A stretch of DNA of 64,000 nt from Escherichia phage vB_EcoM_RZ: sequence record MW598459; one strand, written 5' to 3'. Numbering within the stretch: the first letter of the stretch is position 1; each line of letters starts with the position of its first letter. Made by a program: the position numbers and the translations under genes. Under the pieces are notes generated by a model. That model was not told the DNA's origin. It saw only the letters and a program-made list of their open reading frames with translations, and did not search any database. Positions 37,094 through 43,992 of the stretch are shown piece after piece.

Positions 37094-37393
37094 TTAGAAA
37101 GAACCAGAGCCTTTAATTGTGTTCTGGCGACCTTTATTTTCTAATTCAGAATGGTCGATTTCGTATGCTTGTGCTACACCAAAGGCCTTTTTAACTTTAG
37201 CTAAAGAACCTTTAGATGTAACAATATTAAAAGTATTACCTTTGGTAAAATCAACCAAATCAACTTGTACACCCTGTTTACCGAGGCTTGCGACAATAGC
37301 ATCAACATATTGTTGGTCTAAAGTACCTTGGACTCCAATTTGGAATGCTTTAGGGGCTTTGGCTTCTGTGATAAATTCTTGATAAGTTTTCAT
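37094..37393 (-). CDS. Internal protein (IPII/IPIII-like) with capsid targeting sequence
   Basis: Track ORF 37094..37432; ATG at 37393 gives MKTYQEFITEA, the T4 internal-protein leader; located beside denV as ipII is in T4. Confidence 0.7.
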   Translation of the reverse strand: MKTYQEFITEAKAPKAFQIGVQGTLDQQYVDAIVASLGKQGVQVDLVDFTKGNTFNIVTSKGSLAKVKKAFGVAQAYEIDHSELENKGRQNTIKGSGSF

Positions 37394-37441
37394 TTTATAT
37401 TCCATTGTTTGGCTGATAAAATCATTATACAACCTTTTTAG

Positions 37442-38428: not shown

Positions 38429-38893
38429 TTATCCGAAAATTTGAGTCATTACCTTGTACATCGATTTGCCCATCACATACTGCCATTGACTCGGTTTAAT
38501 CAGAGCAAATGCATCGAACTCTGGAACCGAACTACCATCCGGGAAGGTATGATAGGCAGAGCATTTACTATGTCTGAACTGCTCATGCTCGACCGGAACC
38601 GTGTACAAAAACAGGTGAAGATTTTTGTTATCTGAATAACGGAATTCACCTAAGTCTTTTAAGAATGCTGGGTCGTATTGGGTAAACCCGGTTTCTTCTT
38701 CGGTTTCACGGATAGCCGCTTCAATCGGGGATTCACCAGCTTCAACATGACCCTTAGGGATGTCCCATTTGTGTGCAGGCATACCTGGTTTACGAGAACC
38801 AGTCACACGACCCATGAATAACTCTTTATCTTCAGTCATGAAAATAATGCCAGCAGATAATTCTTTCACCTTGTTTTTCTTACTCATCGTCAC
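38429..38893 (-). CDS. nudE: Nudix hydrolase NudE (e.1-like)
   Basis: Track ORF; Nudix box GHVEAGESPIEAAIRETEEETG; position next to e. Confidence 0.8.
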   Translation of the reverse strand: MTMSKKNKVKELSAGIIFMTEDKELFMGRVTGSRKPGMPAHKWDIPKGHVEAGESPIEAAIRETEEETGFTQYDPAFLKDLGEFRYSDNKNLHLFLYTVPVEHEQFRHSKCSAYHTFPDGSSVPEFDAFALIKPSQWQYVMGKSMYKVMTQIFG

Positions 38894-39116
38894 GTTTCCA
38901 TGATTGGTTAAAAATATCGCTCATTAAAAATTCAAGTCTATTTTCCAATGAAGGGCTTTCACTACTAGAAACTTGAACCATGTAGTCAGCAATAGGTCGG
39001 AACATATCCAAGTCAGTTTCTAAATCATCTTTGATTTTCTCTTCTGATGTACCTGTATCATAGGAATACAGATAAGAATCGCATGACTCAGATTTAATAT
39101 AAATTGCAATACTCAT
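38880..39116 (-). CDS. Hypothetical acidic protein (78 aa)
   Basis: Track ORF. Confidence 0.4.
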   Translation of the reverse strand: MSIAIYIKSESCDSYLYSYDTGTSEEKIKDDLETDLDMFRPIADYMVQVSSSESPSLENRLEFLMSDIFNQSWKRDDE

Positions 39117-39700
39117 TTACGACATTCCTCAATAAAGGAGTTCAATGTATTTTTCTTAGTGATATCGTCATATACCTTTTTAACTTTAGAAATACGAAAA
39201 GGTACTTCAATAACCATAGTCCATAAAAATGATGCAATAAGCCCAGCGAGAGCAGTAGAAAAGCACGCACCCATTACAGCTACGGGTGCTTCATTTTTGC
39301 CTGTCAAGAAAAACCACAGGAATGGTAAAAATAAGATTCCAGCCCAGGCATAAAACCTGGAACAAATTAACTTATCAAATTCATCACTCCAGGTACGAAA
39401 TCCATATTTCTTGCTATAAGAAATTAATGGGTCGGGTGTCTGTTCTTTGAGCGGTTCTGGTTGATGCCCATTAATGATGTATCCCATTTTATATTCCTTA
39501 ATTAAAAGCTCTTTCACATGACGATTGCATCGCGACCAATCAACGTTTTCCACCTTGATTCCTTCATCACCATCATCAAGGTTCGCCCAATATTTTTTGG
39601 TAATCATAAATTCGTCTCTTGATACAATTATACCTGTATTTTCTGCCCGGCGGATGAAGTTTACATCAACACCCATGCAGCCAGTTTCATAAAGGGCCAT
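39113..39700 (-). CDS. Hypothetical membrane protein (195 aa) with C-terminal FIEEC motif
   Basis: Track ORF; C-terminal TM pair then ..NSFIEECRK. Confidence 0.45.
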   Translation of the reverse strand: MALYETGCMGVDVNFIRRAENTGIIVSRDEFMITKKYWANLDDGDEGIKVENVDWSRCNRHVKELLIKEYKMGYIINGHQPEPLKEQTPDPLISYSKKYGFRTWSDEFDKLICSRFYAWAGILFLPFLWFFLTGKNEAPVAVMGACFSTALAGLIASFLWTMVIEVPFRISKVKKVYDDITKKNTLNSFIEECRK

Positions 39701-40386
39701 TACCAGCCCTCCATAGGGAATTCCAGATATACTTGAGCATTAACGCGGATTTCATTTGTAATCTTTTTAACACGGTCGGTATTACGAGACACACGACCAA
39801 ACCAGCGCCAACCGTTACTTACTGCGCGAGAACCCGTATGCCATGTCTGCCAATCAAACTGGAGCAACGTGCGGTCAGGAGCATCCCACTTGGTTAATTC
39901 ATTGGACTCAATTTTTTCCAGAACTTCTTTATGCCACTGGCGATAGATAAGTTCGCCTTCAGGAATCTGACTAAATTGCGCAGTTCCGGTTGCAAAATAA
40001 GTAGGACACACATCAGCGTTAACAAGACCAAGAATATGTTCAGAATGGTAACGAGGATTGTCATAATCAGGTTGCCCTGCAGTAATAAAGTGTTGACCAA
40101 CCGGAATATCCGGGCGTGGTACATCGTCATGGTGATAACCTGGGATAGCAGGATACCAACCAGGCATCAGCATATGAACCCGAGAATCAAATACAACCTG
40201 GTCGGTGTTCCAATCATCCGGCAGACTCATAATAAAGCTACGAGTAATAGGACCGCCATTGTCAAAAGCGAAAGCCAATGAGCTGTTGAAGAACATAGTT
40301 TCGTTTTTGATTTTATCATTAGAAATTTTACCAGCGAAACTGCCTACTGCATGAGCTTGAGAATTAAAAGTTTTTGGACCGTTCAT
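39700..40386 (-). CDS. Hypothetical protein (228 aa)
   Basis: Track ORF. Confidence 0.5.
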   Translation of the reverse strand: MNGPKTFNSQAHAVGSFAGKISNDKIKNETMFFNSSLAFAFDNGGPITRSFIMSLPDDWNTDQVVFDSRVHMLMPGWYPAIPGYHHDDVPRPDIPVGQHFITAGQPDYDNPRYHSEHILGLVNADVCPTYFATGTAQFSQIPEGELIYRQWHKEVLEKIESNELTKWDAPDRTLLQFDWQTWHTGSRAVSNGWRWFGRVSRNTDRVKKITNEIRVNAQVYLEFPMEGW

Positions 40387-40445
40387 AATATTTTCCTCAT
40401 TGATTGTGGGACCATTGTGTCATAGCCCCACTTGGATGTACACAA

Positions 40446-41405
40446 TTATTTTTCGAAAGGGCGAATTAAATGCTGGTTAGCTTTGAAACGTTTAACATAG
40501 TCTTCGTGACCCAGGGTGTTGTACATATTAACCACTTCCTGATAATGTTCCCAGGCATACTCACGGAACCATCCAGAAGTAATGGAGGTACAGACTTTTT
40601 CCAGCGCAATATGGAAGCTCACGGATGGAGAGATATTGAACTCATTGGGAACCTGCGAACGCTCCAGAGCGAGTACACATGCTTCTTCATAAACCCCTGC
40701 CAGTTTAATAATCTCAGGGAGTGCTTCAAATTTTTCACGCGAGGTCATAACTTCTGAATCATCCTTCATATAGAACTTATATGCAGGTTTATCAGCAAGC
40801 GCCACGGCCTCGTGGATGGAGTCATGGTCAAGGGTATAGATTGTATCATTAAAGAAAGTTTTCTTGCCCACGTCTAGTTTAGGGTGACTATATGACAATG
40901 TTTCTGCCTGGCGCTGCAGCATGATTTTATGCAGTTCGTCATTAAGAACAACACCCTTATTGCGAAGGTAATTAATATGACTCATTGTCTTCAGGAAGAA
41001 TGGATTGTTCTTCAGGTAACGATGAGACAGTTTAATTGCCAGACAAATATCAGGAGTCGCCCAATAGAAACCTGTAAGACGGTCTTTCTTAATATGATTT
41101 TCAGCGTATTTCAAGAGACGATAACTTGAGGTGAAATCTTCATCTTGAAGCTCACCAGTAATTTCTCGTACGTTAGTCAGGGCACGGACAATATAAGCTT
41201 CAAAATAGGTTTCTTTGCCATTGTACATACATTTAAAAGCTTGGACATCAGGGTTATCCACAGGAACATGAGCACCGAACATACGTGCTTTAAAGTGGTT
41301 CCAGGAGCCCTGGTCAGCGATAAAGTCCCAATCAGAGTTTTCAATTTTCTGACTTTCAATCAGACCAGCGTTATGTAATGCACGAGAACCAATAACTAAC
41401 ATCAT
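40446..41405 (-). CDS. Hypothetical protein (319 aa) with N-terminal GS...SDWDF nucleotidyltransferase-like motif
   Basis: Track ORF; MMLVIGSRALHNAGLIESQKIENSDWDF; early promoter upstream. Confidence 0.5.
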   Translation of the reverse strand: MMLVIGSRALHNAGLIESQKIENSDWDFIADQGSWNHFKARMFGAHVPVDNPDVQAFKCMYNGKETYFEAYIVRALTNVREITGELQDEDFTSSYRLLKYAENHIKKDRLTGFYWATPDICLAIKLSHRYLKNNPFFLKTMSHINYLRNKGVVLNDELHKIMLQRQAETLSYSHPKLDVGKKTFFNDTIYTLDHDSIHEAVALADKPAYKFYMKDDSEVMTSREKFEALPEIIKLAGVYEEACVLALERSQVPNEFNISPSVSFHIALEKVCTSITSGWFREYAWEHYQEVVNMYNTLGHEDYVKRFKANQHLIRPFEK

Positions 41406-41433
41406 AATATTTTCCTCATTAGTTGACGAGATA

Positions 41434-41463
41434 ATGATACTACGTTTCTTTAGACTTGTATAC
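41434..41463 (-). promoter_or_regulatory. Early promoter (-35 GTATAC, 18 bp, -10 TATCAT)
   Basis: Read on minus strand upstream of ORF 40446..41405. Confidence 0.5.
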
Positions 41464-41506
41464 TAAATCTTGTACATAATTTTCTTATCACATCCTTGTG
41501 ATTAAA

Positions 41507-41734
41507 TTATTTTCCTAACGAAATACGAGTAGGTTTTTTGCCAAAATATTCTTCATAAGAACCATCTAAACGACCCGCTTTAGACCGACAGTATGAATCG
41601 TACTTTTTGTAATAAGTCATCTCAGTATTATAACGCGGGTGTCTATCAGCCATAATAATACTTAATGGCCAACCTTTGGCATAATCGCGAAGACCATTTA
41701 TTTTACTAATGTATCTTTTCTTTAATTTTAGCAT
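41507..41734 (-). CDS. Hypothetical basic protein (75 aa)
   Basis: Track ORF. Confidence 0.4.
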   Translation of the reverse strand: MLKLKKRYISKINGLRDYAKGWPLSIIMADRHPRYNTEMTYYKKYDSYCRSKAGRLDGSYEEYFGKKPTRISLGK

Positions 41735-41952
41735 GAGCTCGGGTACCAGATTTTACCGTCGGCGCGGGCAACGAAGGTACGACCAGCTTCTTCGCCGTAA
41801 CAAGAGCTATTCAGCCAATCTTCAAGACGAACTTCACCGTCATAATCATCTAGCTCAACACCAAAATCCTGAGCAGAAGCCATATCTTTTACTTTCTTAT
41901 ACAGGGCAGCCAGTTCAAGAGCAGCTTTTTCTAATTCGTTAATATCAGTCAT
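41728..41952 (-). CDS. Small acidic protein, paralog family member (C-terminus ..WYPSSC)
   Basis: Track ORF; C-terminal motif related to the three upstream paralogs. Confidence 0.45.
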   Translation of the reverse strand: MTDINELEKAALELAALYKKVKDMASAQDFGVELDDYDGEVRLEDWLNSSCYGEEAGRTFVARADGKIWYPSSC

Positions 41953-41961
41953 TTTTATTCC

Positions 41962-42174
41962 TTAGCATTCGTAAGAGGAGGACACCCAAGAGGTACCACT
42001 AATTGTAATACAACCATTATAAAGCGTAATATGTCGTTCTAGGTCACGAACACCATCAATGTAGATATCAGCTTCTTCGCGTTCTTCTTTACAAATCTGG
42101 ATAACGTTTTCAATAGCTGCCGCGGCAGTACGGATTGCACAATCTAATTCACGAGACATATAATTCCTTAACAT
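41962..42174 (-). CDS. Small protein, paralog family member (C-terminus ..SWVSSSYEC)
   Basis: Track ORF. Confidence 0.45.
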   Translation of the reverse strand: MLRNYMSRELDCAIRTAAAAIENVIQICKEEREEADIYIDGVRDLERHITLYNGCITISGTSWVSSSYEC

Positions 42175-42449
42175 TCAGAAGAGGAGGACACCCAACCGCC
42201 ATTTTCCAGGTCAGTTGTATAGTCATGAGTGTTAACAATAGCCCATTCAGGATGGCCATATTCTTCCCAATGGGCAAGGTCAGCTTTCAAGGCACCAGGA
42301 GAATAATAGTCACCGCCCATACCGCGAGCAGGGTATATATTAAAATGAGTCTCATATTTGTTTGCAATTTCCTCGGCACGCCGAATAGCTTTATGGATGT
42401 CATTTACTGCGTTAGCCAGTTCTTTATTTTTACGGTAATCATTCATCAT
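42168..42449 (-). CDS. Small protein, paralog family member (C-terminus ..GWVSSSSEC)
   Basis: Track ORF. Confidence 0.45.
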   Translation of the reverse strand: MMNDYRKNKELANAVNDIHKAIRRAEEIANKYETHFNIYPARGMGGDYYSPGALKADLAHWEEYGHPEWAIVNTHDYTTDLENGGWVSSSSEC

Positions 42450-42458
42450 AACGTTTCC

Positions 42459-42749
42459 TTAGCACATTGCCGAAGAGGAGACCCAAGCACCAACTGTAAC
42501 GACACCGTTTTCAACTTCACCGCCGTTGTTTTCAATTTCATCTTTAAACCACTGGGAGCATTCATAACCGACAGGATAATATGTACGGCCTGAACCATAA
42601 TCACCGGTACCGAATTGGATACCATATTCATCTGCGATTTCTTCGCAGTGTTTTTCAATTTCAGAGGTCTTATTTAGAAGAGAATAGATGGCTTTTTCTG
42701 CAGATTTCTCATCATAATACTTGGGGATAGCAATTTCAATTTTATTCAT
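42459..42749 (-). CDS. Small protein, paralog family member (C-terminus ..AWVSSSAMC)
   Basis: Track ORF. Confidence 0.45.
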   Translation of the reverse strand: MNKIEIAIPKYYDEKSAEKAIYSLLNKTSEIEKHCEEIADEYGIQFGTGDYGSGRTYYPVGYECSQWFKDEIENNGGEVENGVVTVGAWVSSSAMC

Positions 42750-43099
42750 GATTTACATTCCTTAATAAAGGTTTCAAGGTCATTACGTTTTGTTTTGTCT
42801 AGGAACTTATTATACTCAGCCATTGCCGAAGCATATCTCTTACGGCTAGGAGCATTCACTGCATTTGTGTGACAGATATCATAAACAACCGGGATAAAAT
42901 AAGCCACAACAGCCGGAGCAATTATCATAAAGAAGCCCATCTCAATAGGCATGACTCCCTCGATTGCAGCCATAACCGTGGTCATTACCAGACCAACCAA
43001 ACCACCGAGCATACCGGTGACAATTCCCAATAATAAATTGCCGCCAATATCATATTCAGCCAATTGATAAACATGTGATGCAAGACTAGGCCGTTCCAT
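42746..43099 (-). CDS. Hypothetical membrane protein with C-terminal FIKEC motif
   Basis: Track ORF 42746..43192 trimmed to internal ATG at 43099 adjacent to the upstream stop; several TM helices. Confidence 0.4.
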   Translation of the reverse strand: MERPSLASHVYQLAEYDIGGNLLLGIVTGMLGGLVGLVMTTVMAAIEGVMPIEMGFFMIIAPAVVAYFIPVVYDICHTNAVNAPSRKRYASAMAEYNKFLDKTKRNDLETFIKECKS

Positions 43100-43445
43100 T
43101 ACGAACCTCCTTAATAAATTCTTCGGCACATTTAATTTTGTGCTCTTCTTGTAGGGAAACACATTTTTGTTCCCACTCTTTAACTCGTCCACGATATCCT
43201 TTATTCATATGATTTTGATGCCATACATTTATCAAAATCATACTCAGGACTGTAATAAAAGGAGCTGCGATTATTAGCGCCCAGGCAACTCCAACACTAA
43301 TGATATCCATATCCCCACAAACCACCATCATTATAACCCCAACAATGCACATGGACAAAGCTCCAAATGGAGGCATAAGGTCTTTATCAATCTTGTCTGC
43401 GTATACAAATTTTTCTGGTTTACTTGGCAGATATAACGTTCGCAT
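43086..43445 (-). CDS. Hypothetical membrane protein with C-terminal EEFIKEV motif
   Basis: Track ORF 43086..43481 trimmed to internal ATG at 43445. Confidence 0.4.
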   Translation of the reverse strand: MRTLYLPSKPEKFVYADKIDKDLMPPFGALSMCIVGVIMMVVCGDMDIISVGVAWALIIAAPFITVLSMILINVWHQNHMNKGYRGRVKEWEQKCVSLQEEHKIKCAEEFIKEVRNGTA

Positions 43446-43992
43446 TTTGAACCCCTTTAGCATATTCACGACATTCAGCAATAAAACGATTAAGCTTACG
43501 TTTCCGTTTACGACCCTCTAATGTATACTCAGCCGCCAAATCAAGAAGCTCATCTTTATCATAATTTTTAATATCAGTATAAGTTGGGCGGCGGTCAACC
43601 ATTCCAAAGTGGTCACCATTTTCCAACATCAAATAACACACCAAATGGTCATCATCGTCCGCATTAATAAGCTGCTTATAATCACTTGGTTCATTTAACG
43701 CATACACAGAATAACTCAGCCCAGCGAATTCCACTCGTTGAATACCCAGATTTACGTCAATAATTTCCAAGGCATCTGCAAAAGAAAGGTCTTCAGCTAA
43801 AGCAAAAATAAAAGGCAATTTGGTAGTATCGCCGCGACTTGTTGTTCTTCTTAAGAAATCATTGGAATAGCCCAAGTCGCGGCGGATTCTATAAAGAACT
43901 GTGTTAGTTTCAGTGGCAAGACCACTACCGCCAAACCATTCCACATTTGATAAAAGATTATCATATAAAGTCATAATTTTCTCCTCTCCCAA
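43420..43992 (-). CDS. Hypothetical protein (190 aa) with basic stretch RKRKRK and FIAEC motif
   Basis: Track ORF. Confidence 0.45.
   Translation of the reverse strand: MGEEKIMTLYDNLLSNVEWFGGSGLATETNTVLYRIRRDLGYSNDFLRRTTSRGDTTKLPFIFALAEDLSFADALEIIDVNLGIQRVEFAGLSYSVYALNEPSDYKQLINADDDDHLVCYLMLENGDHFGMVDRRPTYTDIKNYDKDELLDLAAEYTLEGRKRKRKLNRFIAECREYAKGVQNANVISAK

Follow-up and report, generated by a model that had tools for sequence, protein, structure and literature searches.

Small tandem phage proteins with a C-terminal W-x-S-S-..-C tail are encoded beside a DUF7277-DUF7275 protein gene

Escherichia phage vB_EcoM_RZ (sequence record MW598459) carries, within the 64,000-nucleotide stretch analyzed here and termed the window, four adjacent minus-strand genes for small proteins with a common C-terminal ending, followed by a co-directional gene for a protein composed of the Pfam domains DUF7277 and DUF7275 (Table 1). 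The shared ending, a Trp followed by a short Ser run and a final Cys, is referred to as the tail, and the four proteins as types A to D. A preliminary description of this DNA had singled out the array as four tandem paralogues sharing a W-x-S-S-..-C tail, and the array is real: reading frames, protein ends and a scan for chance occurrences all agree. A six-frame regular-expression scan of the whole window found the tail motif in these four ORFs only; of the 135 minus-strand ORFs with 50 aa or more, just the four tail genes have Cys as their last residue, and no plus-strand ORF (0/91) ends this way. At their N-termini the proteins read MNKIEIA, MMNDYRK, MSRELDC and MTDINEL.

Table 1. Coordinates of the tail genes, the junction repeats and the partner gene in the window
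Feature	Position	Strand	Details
Tail protein type A, 96 aa	42459..42749	-	ends GAWVSSSAMC; phrog_899, E=3.7e-23
Tail protein type B, 93 aa	42168..42449	-	ends GGWVSSSSEC; phrog_899, E=5e-20
Tail protein type C, 65 aa	41962..42159	-	MSRELD start, ends TSWVSSSYEC; phrog_4882, E=2.4e-36
Tail protein type D, 74 aa	41728..41952	-	ends KIWYPSSC, two motif copies; phrog_899, E=6.4e-10
Internal tail-motif copy D-W-L-N-S-S-C inside type D	41800..41820	-	followed by YGEE
Junction repeat, A/B boundary	42454..42486		tail codons, stop and Shine-Dalgarno, TTTCCTTAGCACATTGCCGAAGAGGAGACCCAA on the + strand; family D1, 70% identical to reference copy
Junction repeat, B/C boundary	42163..42195		family D1, 91% identical to reference copy
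Junction repeat, C/D boundary	41957..41989		100% identity; site of one-gene (type E) deletion relative to phage VR7
DUF7277-DUF7275 protein, 319 aa	40446..41405	-	Pfam DUF7275, E=1e-75; DUF7277, E=4.5e-26

Three of the gene sizes given earlier (74, 93 and 96 aa) stand. Type C, listed there at 70 aa, most likely has 65 residues and starts at the ATG at 42159; the longer ORF, extending to 42174, is an unlikely product because the start of the shorter form is spaced 7 nt downstream of the AAGGAA in the preceding stop/RBS, because all orthologues begin MSRELD, and because the 65-aa form matches phrog_4882 end to end (residues 1-65 of 65). The arrangement in which each stop is followed at once by the next ribosome-binding site is likewise present at three junctions (TGC/TGT TAA GGAA..ATG), but at the fourth the ATG of the next ORF overlaps the Cys codon and the stop (tcATGcTAA). 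The ATG of type A in turn overlaps the stop of an upstream gene for an e.3-like membrane protein (ATGA). Type B carries a loop of the family as PARGMGGDYY (consensus AYGMGGTYY) and has tblastn matches in 283 phage records, and in type D both motif copies, the internal DWLNSSC-YGEE and the terminal KIWYPSSC, are conserved in orthologues.

Beyond the window, a census yielded 159 distinct tail proteins. With the Trp at position 0, Ser occupies +3 in 157/159 and +4 in 143/159, values that are partly imposed since the scan required S-[S/T] after the Trp, and the Cys bearing the terminal carboxylate lies at +5 in 35 and at +7 in 114. At least 149 of the 159 end in Cys, a few tails finishing with CN, CS, CW or CSY instead, and the spacing between Ser and Cys ranges from 0 to 3 residues. 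An internal W..SSC[YF]G copy is present in 21/159. The proteins are small and strongly acidic (median length 86 aa, median net charge -9, 99% acidic), and a profile search of 1.84 billion proteins returned 49 representative clusters, all of 60-143 aa; of those whose sequences were retrieved, nearly all end in the W-x-S-S-..-C tail.

The N-terminal regions had been described as unrelated, a view that these comparisons overturn: types A, B and D match one PHROG over their full lengths, and once the last 10 residues are removed, 147 of the 159 proteins still form one BLAST single-linkage cluster. Most tail proteins thus constitute one divergent, phage-restricted superfamily built of a helix, a small sheet and then the tail. 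The body falls outside the family profile (E above 0.4) in just a few members (139, 144 and 117 aa), and even these still look helix-then-strand; the idea of the tail as a portable tag on unrelated domains was downgraded on this account. An AlphaFold2 (AF2) model of type A (pLDDT 88) consists of two helices and a small sheet, with W89 in the last strand and a final six residues of pLDDT 66 vs 95 just before, a profile in keeping with an accessible tail. The family architecture may accordingly be written as an amphipathic N-terminal helix or helical hairpin, a small beta-sheet and the tail G-x-W-h-[S/P/A]-S-S-(x-x)-C-COOH, in proteins that are apparently cytoplasmic. As the preliminary description had it, no known family can be assigned: searches of Pfam, NCBIfam and PADLOC returned no match for the small proteins, whose only memberships are in PHROG 899 and 4882, both of "unknown function," and sequence and profile searches of the PDB gave designed helical bundles and other chance helix matches with no fold match.

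Because the homology of most tail proteins extends beyond the tail, the tail could be just the best-conserved structural element of one fold, namely its last strand and cap, where the terminal Cys might form a disulfide in a dimer or take part in a metal site. On this view the small proteins would act alone, e.g. as acidic decoys, DNA mimics or ligand sponges, and the DUF7277-DUF7275 gene would owe its linkage to them solely to a shared accessory cassette moving as a unit. The persistence of the cluster without its tails, the predicted strand around W89 and the pronounced acidity are consistent with this account, as is the AYGMGGTYY loop, which is subfamily-specific and suggests a ligand or target site of its own. 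We nevertheless consider it unlikely, since conservation is far higher in the tail than elsewhere in the fold, type D contains the tail motif twice, and the tail is the least confident part of the AF2 model; the linkage data presented below bear on it further.

Conservation of the tail had also been reported at the DNA level. This is correct for three junctions, at which a 33-nt repeat covers tail, stop and RBS, but not for the fourth tail, that of type D, which is encoded by different codons (CCG AGC TCA TGC). Relative to phage VR7, the window shows a 237-nt indel corresponding to one gene (type E) and bounded by TGCTAAGGnnATAAAATG, the repeated Cys-stop-RBS-ATG junction, and window gene D starts with the ATGACTG of VR7 gene E. 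The repeat therefore mediates copy-number change, and the earlier proposal of recombination junctions for cassette shuffling survives to that extent, yet the repeat leaves the motif unexplained, since the motif persists even where the DNA sequence does not. One might still argue from the extent of the repeat, and from its position at the ends of the type-E indel, that the motif exists because the 3' ends of the genes serve as recombination or regulatory sequence. As a cause of conservation this is scarcely conceivable and is refuted by the type D tail, with its AGC codon for Ser, and by distant phages that retain the motif in unrelated DNA; it stands only as a mechanism of copy-number variation. 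By these comparisons the motif is selected at the protein level, because Ser codons differ among the paralogues (TCN vs AGC) and because the motif persists at about 50% protein identity and in unrelated phage groups. A mere by-product of overlapping regulatory DNA fails to account for such protein-level conservation across phage families, or for the synonymous changes and the switch of Ser codon family that accompany it. The junction repeat, in short, accounts for copy-number change and not for conservation of the motif.

The DUF7277-DUF7275 protein, hereafter the partner, is a clear member of both Pfam families (254 and 91.8 bits vs cut-offs of 27) and of phrog_2141; both domains are matched by 27/27 diverse homologues. 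Proteins of this kind are about 310 aa long. In these 27 sequences, which extend down to 27% identity with the window protein, the N-terminus VIGSRAL(x15)SDWDFI has invariant G6, S7, D25 and D27, and the C-terminal domain has invariant K125, H128, K139, H194, D195, H198, E240, E241, E248, R249, T273 and S274. In total, the G-S and D-x-D elements and 17 more residues, chiefly His, Asp, Glu, Lys and Arg, are invariant, a pattern that suggests an enzyme. The N-terminal signature, hhhGS-x(13-17)-DxDhh in all 27, has a spacing at or beyond the range of the classical hG[GS]-x(9-13)-Dh[DE]h, and a candidate third carboxylate, E69, is invariant in the 8 sequences of one alignment (A6) and lies in a segment missing from short phrog_6944-type relatives. 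The partner may thus be said to resemble Pol-beta-type nucleotidyltransferases by motif only, and nucleotidyl transfer as its chemistry is speculative. Hmmscan against Pfam, run on 8 and on 27 members at E up to 10, returned the two DUFs only and no nucleotidyltransferase; neither the single sequence nor profiles A6, A7 and A8 retrieved a credible match from the PDB; and hhalign comparisons with hand-entered sequences of AadA, KNTase and ANT(2'') gave probabilities below 1%. An HD-domain phosphohydrolase is not supported for the C-terminal domain: H128, H194-D195 and D215 are present, but their spacing is atypical for the HD motif H...HD...D, and there is no profile match (hhalign probability 0.16% against a hand-entered sequence of the HD protein YfbR). 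An AF2 model from the single partner sequence reached pLDDT 38 and was discarded.

Tail genes and the partner gene form a linked pair across about 12 phage lineages. In the forward direction, 54 of 58 DUF7277/7275 loci in IMG/VR have 1-5 tail ORFs upstream, on the same strand and within 4 kb (169 ORFs), and one locus has four tail ORFs downstream; opposite-strand ORFs at the 58 loci carry the motif in 0/876 cases. In the reverse direction, a DNA pattern for YGMGGTY retrieved 41 true tail genes, and for the 32 that could be tested, those followed by more than 1 kb of sequence, the DUF gene lies downstream on the same strand within 1.4 kb in every case, vs 0/32 for control matches to the pattern outside the family. 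The order is the small gene or genes first and the partner gene second, on one strand and with short gaps or overlaps. Shorter partner relatives of the phrog_6944 type, in Streptomyces, Gordonia and Vibrio K408 phages, lack tail genes, which speaks for the specificity of the pairing. When all neighbors were clustered across 14 partner lineages, no other family was common to more than four, and the search for a third conserved component found only genes of about 228 aa after the partner in three phage groups, which are mutually non-homologous. NAD-related neighbors (SIR2, a NARP1-like pair and NAMPT) are inconsistently present and were treated as island context.

This pairing points to a two-part phage system without earlier description, and it also bears on the alternatives. 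The structural account of the tail given above is favored by partner genes that occur without tail genes, at one T4-like locus (L039) and in actinophages; however, the two-way linkage survives about 12 lineages that share no other neighbor, where hitch-hiking should decay. A tail that is strictly C-terminal, with flexible last residues, could also be a degron or targeting signal read by host machinery and not by a phage protein. This is quite improbable: it would leave unexplained why one phage gene is linked to the tail genes almost without exception in hosts as different as Escherichia, Pseudomonas, Acinetobacter and Aeromonas, and by eye the sequences show no hydrophobic segment suggestive of a signal peptide or membrane span. 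The gene order, reminiscent of nucleotidyltransferase toxins with an upstream antitoxin, and the G-S...D-x-D signature of the partner would also fit a toxic or tightly controlled enzyme that the small acidic proteins inhibit or gate through their tails. We regard such antitoxin-like regulation as improbable, since up to five divergent paralogues per enzyme would be atypical for antitoxins, neither PADLOC nor toxin-antitoxin models nor DUF1814/AbiEii gave a match (PADLOC-DB models returned none for the small proteins and a single 12-bit, chance-level match for the partner), and the module is essentially absent from bacterial genomes, with 5 MAG contigs among 185,579 species.

The best explanation, held with moderate confidence, is that the tail is a handle by which the enzyme-like partner modifies or docks the small proteins; we infer a physical or biochemical coupling of tail and enzyme. 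One to five tandem tail genes and the co-directional partner gene, nearly always immediately downstream, would make up a two-part module. Either the enzyme would covalently modify the tail, at the Ser run, at the thiol of the last Cys or at the terminal carboxylate, or the small proteins would be docked through their tails as interchangeable partner or specificity subunits. Their variable bodies would be diversifying host-directed effectors or decoys, an anti-host role that is speculative, and the number of tail genes would shift by recombination between the repeated tail-stop-RBS junctions. In a more specific form, the module would be a protein-tagging or activation pathway in which the enzyme recognizes the tail and covalently modifies it, for example by nucleotidylylation of Ser or Cys or by reaction at the terminal Cys carboxylate or thiol, thereby arming or regulating diversifying acidic host-directed effectors; we rate this form as possible but somewhat unlikely. 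The preliminary suggestion that the tail is a modification or attachment site is thus strengthened indirectly, by the almost constant adjacency of the tail genes to a conserved enzyme-like gene, while modification itself stays putative.

Several known systems share features with this module. LPXTG/sortase, PEP-CTERM/exosortase and GlyGly-CTERM/rhombosortase were likewise recognized through co-occurrence, and in them too a short C-terminal motif on many paralogues tracks one dedicated enzyme gene. In contrast to their substrates, the tail proteins have no signal peptide, membrane helix or basic stretch after the motif and seem to be acidic proteins of the cytoplasm; the partner does not belong to the sortases, exosortases or rhombosortases, and the tail system is phage-encoded. 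A sorting signal of this type was rejected, as no hydrophobic segment is seen and the protein ends with the motif. CaaX prenylation was rejected as well, since it needs Cys at -4, followed by a-a-X, and the Cys of the tail is almost always last.

In GlnD-PII and MNT-HEPN, an enzyme with a G-S...D-x-D N-terminus and a second domain rich in His, Asp and Glu acts on a small protein or is encoded together with one. The partner is similarly organized, but no nucleotidyltransferase or HD family shows statistically supported homology to it, the acceptor would be a Ser/Cys tail at the C-terminus and not a loop Tyr, and each enzyme would have several paralogous candidate substrates.

Arrays of RiPP precursors present a further parallel: tandem small genes whose products end S-x-x-C-COOH adjoin an uncharacterized candidate modifying enzyme, and the Ser/Cys-rich C-terminus might be a core peptide that is modified (e.g. 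in lanthionine or AviCys fashion) and released. Such a function is very improbable, however. Conservation is reversed relative to RiPPs, with an invariant "core" and a variable "leader" that is a folded, confidently modeled part of 50-160 aa; the Ser-to-Cys spacing varies; and neither a known maturase (LanB/C/M/KC/D, rSAM, YcaO) nor a protease or exporter is encoded by the genes scanned around the array (window 38880-43481) or by the neighbors tested in phages AV125 and Acj9.

In size, acidity and variable copy number, and in their place as accessory genes on the early-gene strand between conserved modules, the tail proteins resemble the small acidic early proteins of T-even phages, such as Arn, Ocr-like DNA mimics and the Vs.4/Acb2 sponge. 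They differ in lacking sequence or fold similarity to any of these, none of which is known to carry a conserved Cys tail at the C-terminus or to have an enzyme gene as obligatory neighbor. T4 internal proteins were rejected as a match because the N-termini are unlike the MKTYQEFIAE-type capsid-targeting sequence with its gp21 cleavage site; a protein with an internal-protein-like (MKTYQEFIAE-like) N-terminus is encoded elsewhere in the window. The closest named families are phrog_899, phrog_4882, phrog_2141 and Pfam DUF7277/DUF7275, of which the window proteins are clear members and whose entries carry no function.

Carriers of the pair have unrelated backbones: T4-like phages of Escherichia, Klebsiella, Citrobacter, Aeromonas and Acinetobacter, the rV5-like Phapecoctavirus AV125, the Pseudomonas Otagovirus phiPsa397 and metagenomic contigs. 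They include therapeutic-type T4-like, rV5-like and Pseudomonas phages. Counting the shorter relatives without tail genes, the partner gene is present in 730 of 50,697 phage records. A literature search found no mention of the PHROG or DUF identifiers, the RB69 ORF names, the tail motif or the pairing. The module has probably been overlooked because a scan of 119 kb of T4 found neither family and because its parts are annotated just as "hypothetical."

If the pairing is functional, it would represent an unrecognized two-component module in several hundred sequenced phage genomes; if the tagging pathway exists, it would be a new post-translational modification system carried by as many phages and not found in the scanned part of T4. 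The tail expression together with DUF7275 already allows more than 150 distinct proteins to be annotated by a simple rule. More broadly, a tail of 8-10 residues and one enzyme offer a testable handle on dark-matter genes that populate hyperplastic regions of large lytic phages, and from the module a new protein modification, or a new way of deploying interchangeable small phage effectors, may emerge.

The window comes from a T4-like coliphage of the JS98/DK-13 type, and the region considered here is 99.3% identical to that of Escherichia phage DK-13. An array of four genes for small proteins with a C-terminal W-x-S-S-S-x-x-C tail (types A to D) precedes a gene for a DUF7277-DUF7275 protein. 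In T4 (locus L152; NC_000866, 67652-68319), e.2 and e.3 abut, and the locus has neither the array nor the DUF7277-DUF7275 and 228-aa genes, so that the whole block represents an insertion relative to T4. Profile and regular-expression scans of T4 positions 1-76000 and 126001-168903 (119 kb, on either side of the late-gene region) detected neither family.

Features of the tail gene array and its surroundings in the window
Feature	Position	Strand	Placement
e.3/e.4-like membrane protein genes	42746-43481		upstream of array
Tail gene, type A	42459-42749	minus	array
Tail gene, type B	42168-42449	minus	array
Tail gene, type C (start almost certain)	41962-42159	minus	array
Tail gene, type D	41728-41952	minus	array
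75-aa ORF, basic, phrog_7065 (function-less family)	41507-41734	minus	between array and DUF7277-DUF7275 gene
DUF7277-DUF7275 gene, 319 aa	40446-41405	minus	downstream of array
228-aa ORF	39700-40386	minus	directly downstream of DUF7277-DUF7275 gene
e.2, nudE, lysozyme gene e			downstream of array, beyond 228-aa ORF
112-aa ORF	37094-37432	minus	beside denV and e

Two neighbouring ORFs deserve mention. The 228-aa ORF, without Pfam or NCBIfam match, contains GYHHDD...WHTG, possibly an HxD...H metal-site pattern (cupin- or 2OG-oxygenase-like?). Neighbour clustering brought together, from two enzyme lineages, 228-240-aa ORFs that share its C-terminal end, Aeromonas CC2-like phages (L009 9187-9873) being among the carriers, and genes of similar size at the equivalent position in phages AV125 and Acj9 show no homology to it. 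The 112-aa ORF contains MKTYQEFITEAKAP, which resembles the sequence that targets T4 internal head proteins to the capsid from their N-terminus; it is therefore probably an internal protein gene.

The preliminary description of four ORFs with shared C-termini stands with two corrections: the type C gene, given there as 70 aa, almost certainly starts at 42159 and would encode 65 aa (MSRELD...), as judged from RBS spacing, orthologue starts and an end-to-end PHROG match, and type D (74 aa) carries a second, internal motif copy, DWLNSSC. Six-frame translation of the window confines the motif to these four ORFs, and no others among the 135 minus-strand ORFs of 50 aa or longer end in Cys; the occurrence of the motif is far beyond chance. 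The reported succession of stop and RBS holds at three junctions, where stop, AAGGAA and the next ATG follow directly, and fails at the fourth, where the ATG of the 75-aa ORF, a lineage-specific gene outside the conserved pair, lies across the end of gene D, overlapping its Cys codon and stop (tcATGcTAA).

A 33-nt direct repeat, with copies 100, 91 and 70% identical, spans tail codons, stop and RBS, and the motif might accordingly be read as a DNA signal. The tail codons of types A, B and C differ synonymously, however, and the type D tail is CCG AGC TCA TGC, with a switched Ser codon family. The tail also persists in Citrobacter phage Merlin, Klebsiella phage Marfa and RB69-like Shf125875 (~50-58% protein identity), as well as in non-T4-like phages of unrelated DNA. 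Conservation thus acts at the protein level, contrary to the refuting condition set in the preliminary description (a motif due only to an overlapping regulatory sequence, with no protein conservation in homologues), and a DNA signal is a less likely reading.

Related phages carry 0-5 tail gene copies. The array order is A, B, C, D in the window vs A, B, C, E, D in phage VR7, the one-gene indel being type E (75 aa). The repeated Cys-stop-RBS-ATG junction TGCTAAGGnnATAAAATG delimits the 237-nt difference (window 41943-41990 vs L001, the VR7 locus), and the start of gene D in the window is chimeric, with ATGACTG of VR7 gene E fused to the ATATTAA.. of D; together, these features point to deletion of type E in the window lineage by recombination between junction repeats. 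The earlier idea that the repeat marks recombination junctions thus holds for the dynamics of the array, not for the reason behind the motif.

The small proteins had been described as having unrelated N-terminal regions; PHROG matches and clustering without the tail instead identify them as paralogues over their whole length. The PHROG matches are phrog_899 for types A, B and D and phrog_4882 for type C, and 147 of 159 distinct tail proteins remain in one BLAST single-linkage cluster after removal of the last 10 residues. The bodies of a few members (139, 144 and 117 aa) go unrecognised by the family profile, the two longer ones (one ending ..SSSICW) failing once the tail is removed; some tail proteins are much longer than the rest (139-173 aa) and have extra N-terminal regions (L007 4931-5794; L010 962-1405). 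Among 1.84 billion representative proteins searched by profile, only 49 clusters matched, all of 60-143 aa. The consensus runs from a helix (..A..EAEkIAdey) through F.F, AYGMGGTYYP and a variable acidic insert to GGW[VQLI]SS[ST]xxC-COOH. Median length among the 159 proteins is 86 aa and median net charge -9, and 99% are acidic. With W as position 0, Ser occupies +3 in 157/159 and +4 in 143/159, the scan pattern itself having required S-[S/T] after W; the terminal Cys lies at +5 (35) or +7 (114), and a few proteins end CN, CS, CW or CSY. AlphaFold2 modelled type A from a 30-sequence alignment (pLDDT 88) as two helices plus a small sheet, the last strand of which contains W89; confidence drops to 66 across the final six residues.

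In distant members, a DUF7277-DUF7275 protein of 309-330 aa is encoded immediately downstream each time, as in an otherwise different metagenomic contig, a 153-kb contig and an Aeromonas CC2-like phage. We examined this linkage both ways. Among 58 IMG/VR loci encoding the enzyme-like protein, 54 carry 1-5 tail ORFs (169 in total) no more than 4 kb upstream and in the same orientation. In L073, four tail ORFs lie downstream of the enzyme gene instead, L070 and L071 show a variant tail (..EEWYSSSEAWTPSGCSY), and L039 contains the enzyme gene and no tail ORF; none of 876 opposite-strand ORFs at enzyme loci matches the motif. In reverse, a DNA pattern for YGMGGTY recovered 73 loci, 41 with true tail genes. 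In each of the 32 where the stored DNA runs more than 1 kb past the tail gene, the DUF gene follows within 1.4 kb in the same orientation; the stored DNA of the other 9 ends too soon. The DUF gene accompanies 0/32 non-member matches. The pairing extends to Pseudomonas Otagovirus phiPsa397 (4 tail genes), Phapecoctavirus AV125 (3) and Acinetobacter phage Acj9 (2), and no other gene family recurs in more than four of 14 enzyme lineages. The enzyme family is represented in 730 phage records; bacterial genomes are essentially devoid of it (5 MAG contigs among 185,579 species).

In several phages, NAD-related genes occur at most a few kb away from the module (L007 9706-10533; L011 from 5712 to the locus end; L012 4283-5936; L015 8-1663): SIR2 in the 153-kb contig and AV125, NAMPT near the enzyme relative of Vibrio K408, and, in Acj9, PRPP-synthetase-like and nicotinate phosphoribosyltransferase genes, which resemble the published NARP1 pair. 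Because the association is inconsistent across lineages, it may merely reflect an accessory or counter-defence island.

The DUF7277-DUF7275 protein looks like an enzyme. Invariant among 27 sequences, down to 27% identity with the window protein, are G6, S7, D25, D27, K125, H128, K139, H194, D195, H198, E240, E241, E248, R249, T273 and S274, and the non-polar L177, F184, F185, P207 and V219. Its N-terminus, hhhGS-x13-17-DxDhh followed by a conserved E on a later predicted strand, is similar to the Pol-beta nucleotidyltransferase signature, and some GenBank annotators label it 'nucleotidyltransferase'. Searches did not confirm this assignment: Pfam gave no nucleotidyltransferase or HD match, PDB profile searches were empty, hhalign against four reference sequences was not significant, and AlphaFold2 without an alignment yielded no usable model (pLDDT 38). 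Shorter relatives of the phrog_6944 type (248-263 aa; Streptomyces BillNye, Gordonia ClubL and Vibrio K408; L013-L015) have a reduced N-terminal domain, no nearby tail genes and no segment between the DxD and SHR motifs; this segment, limited to tail-associated enzymes (~residues 45-105), is a candidate for tail binding or catalysis. The most conserved enzyme motif, KVCTSITSGWFR (residues 270-281), also present in the short relatives, resembles the tail G-W-x-S-S-S-x-x-C when reversed (W-G-S-T-I-S-T-C), which could reflect antiparallel strand pairing juxtaposing W/W, S/S and C/C, or coincidence.

The nearest parallels are C-terminal tags served by a dedicated enzyme (sortase and exosortase systems), protein-nucleotidylylation pairs (GlnD-PII, MNT-HEPN), RiPP precursor arrays and small acidic T-even accessory proteins; for each, defining features were looked for and not found, so that the module cannot be assigned to any of these classes, and RiPPs, like antitoxin-like small proteins or a host-read degron, are less likely readings. 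Both components have only function-less PHROG or DUF entries, in keeping with the preliminary description, which could assign no known family, and a literature search found no paper on either. From the absence of detectable similarity and the genomic linkage, we provisionally rate the module as outside known kinds.

With the family, its tail, the tail's position and the gene linkage in place, the reading with the best support makes the tail the element by which the DUF7277-DUF7275 protein acts on the small proteins, a coupling that we infer. In the main rival, the tail is simply a structural element, the best conserved in one fold, and the linkage is cassette synteny; yet the pair persists across backbones otherwise sharing nothing, the tail is duplicated inside type D, and its model confidence is low, which makes the rival less probable. 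If the protein does act through the tail, it may covalently modify the Ser run or terminal Cys, nucleotidyl transfer being a speculative chemistry, or the tail may dock the small proteins as interchangeable partner subunits. The acidic, variable bodies of the small proteins would serve as effectors directed at the host, an anti-host role that we offer as speculation.
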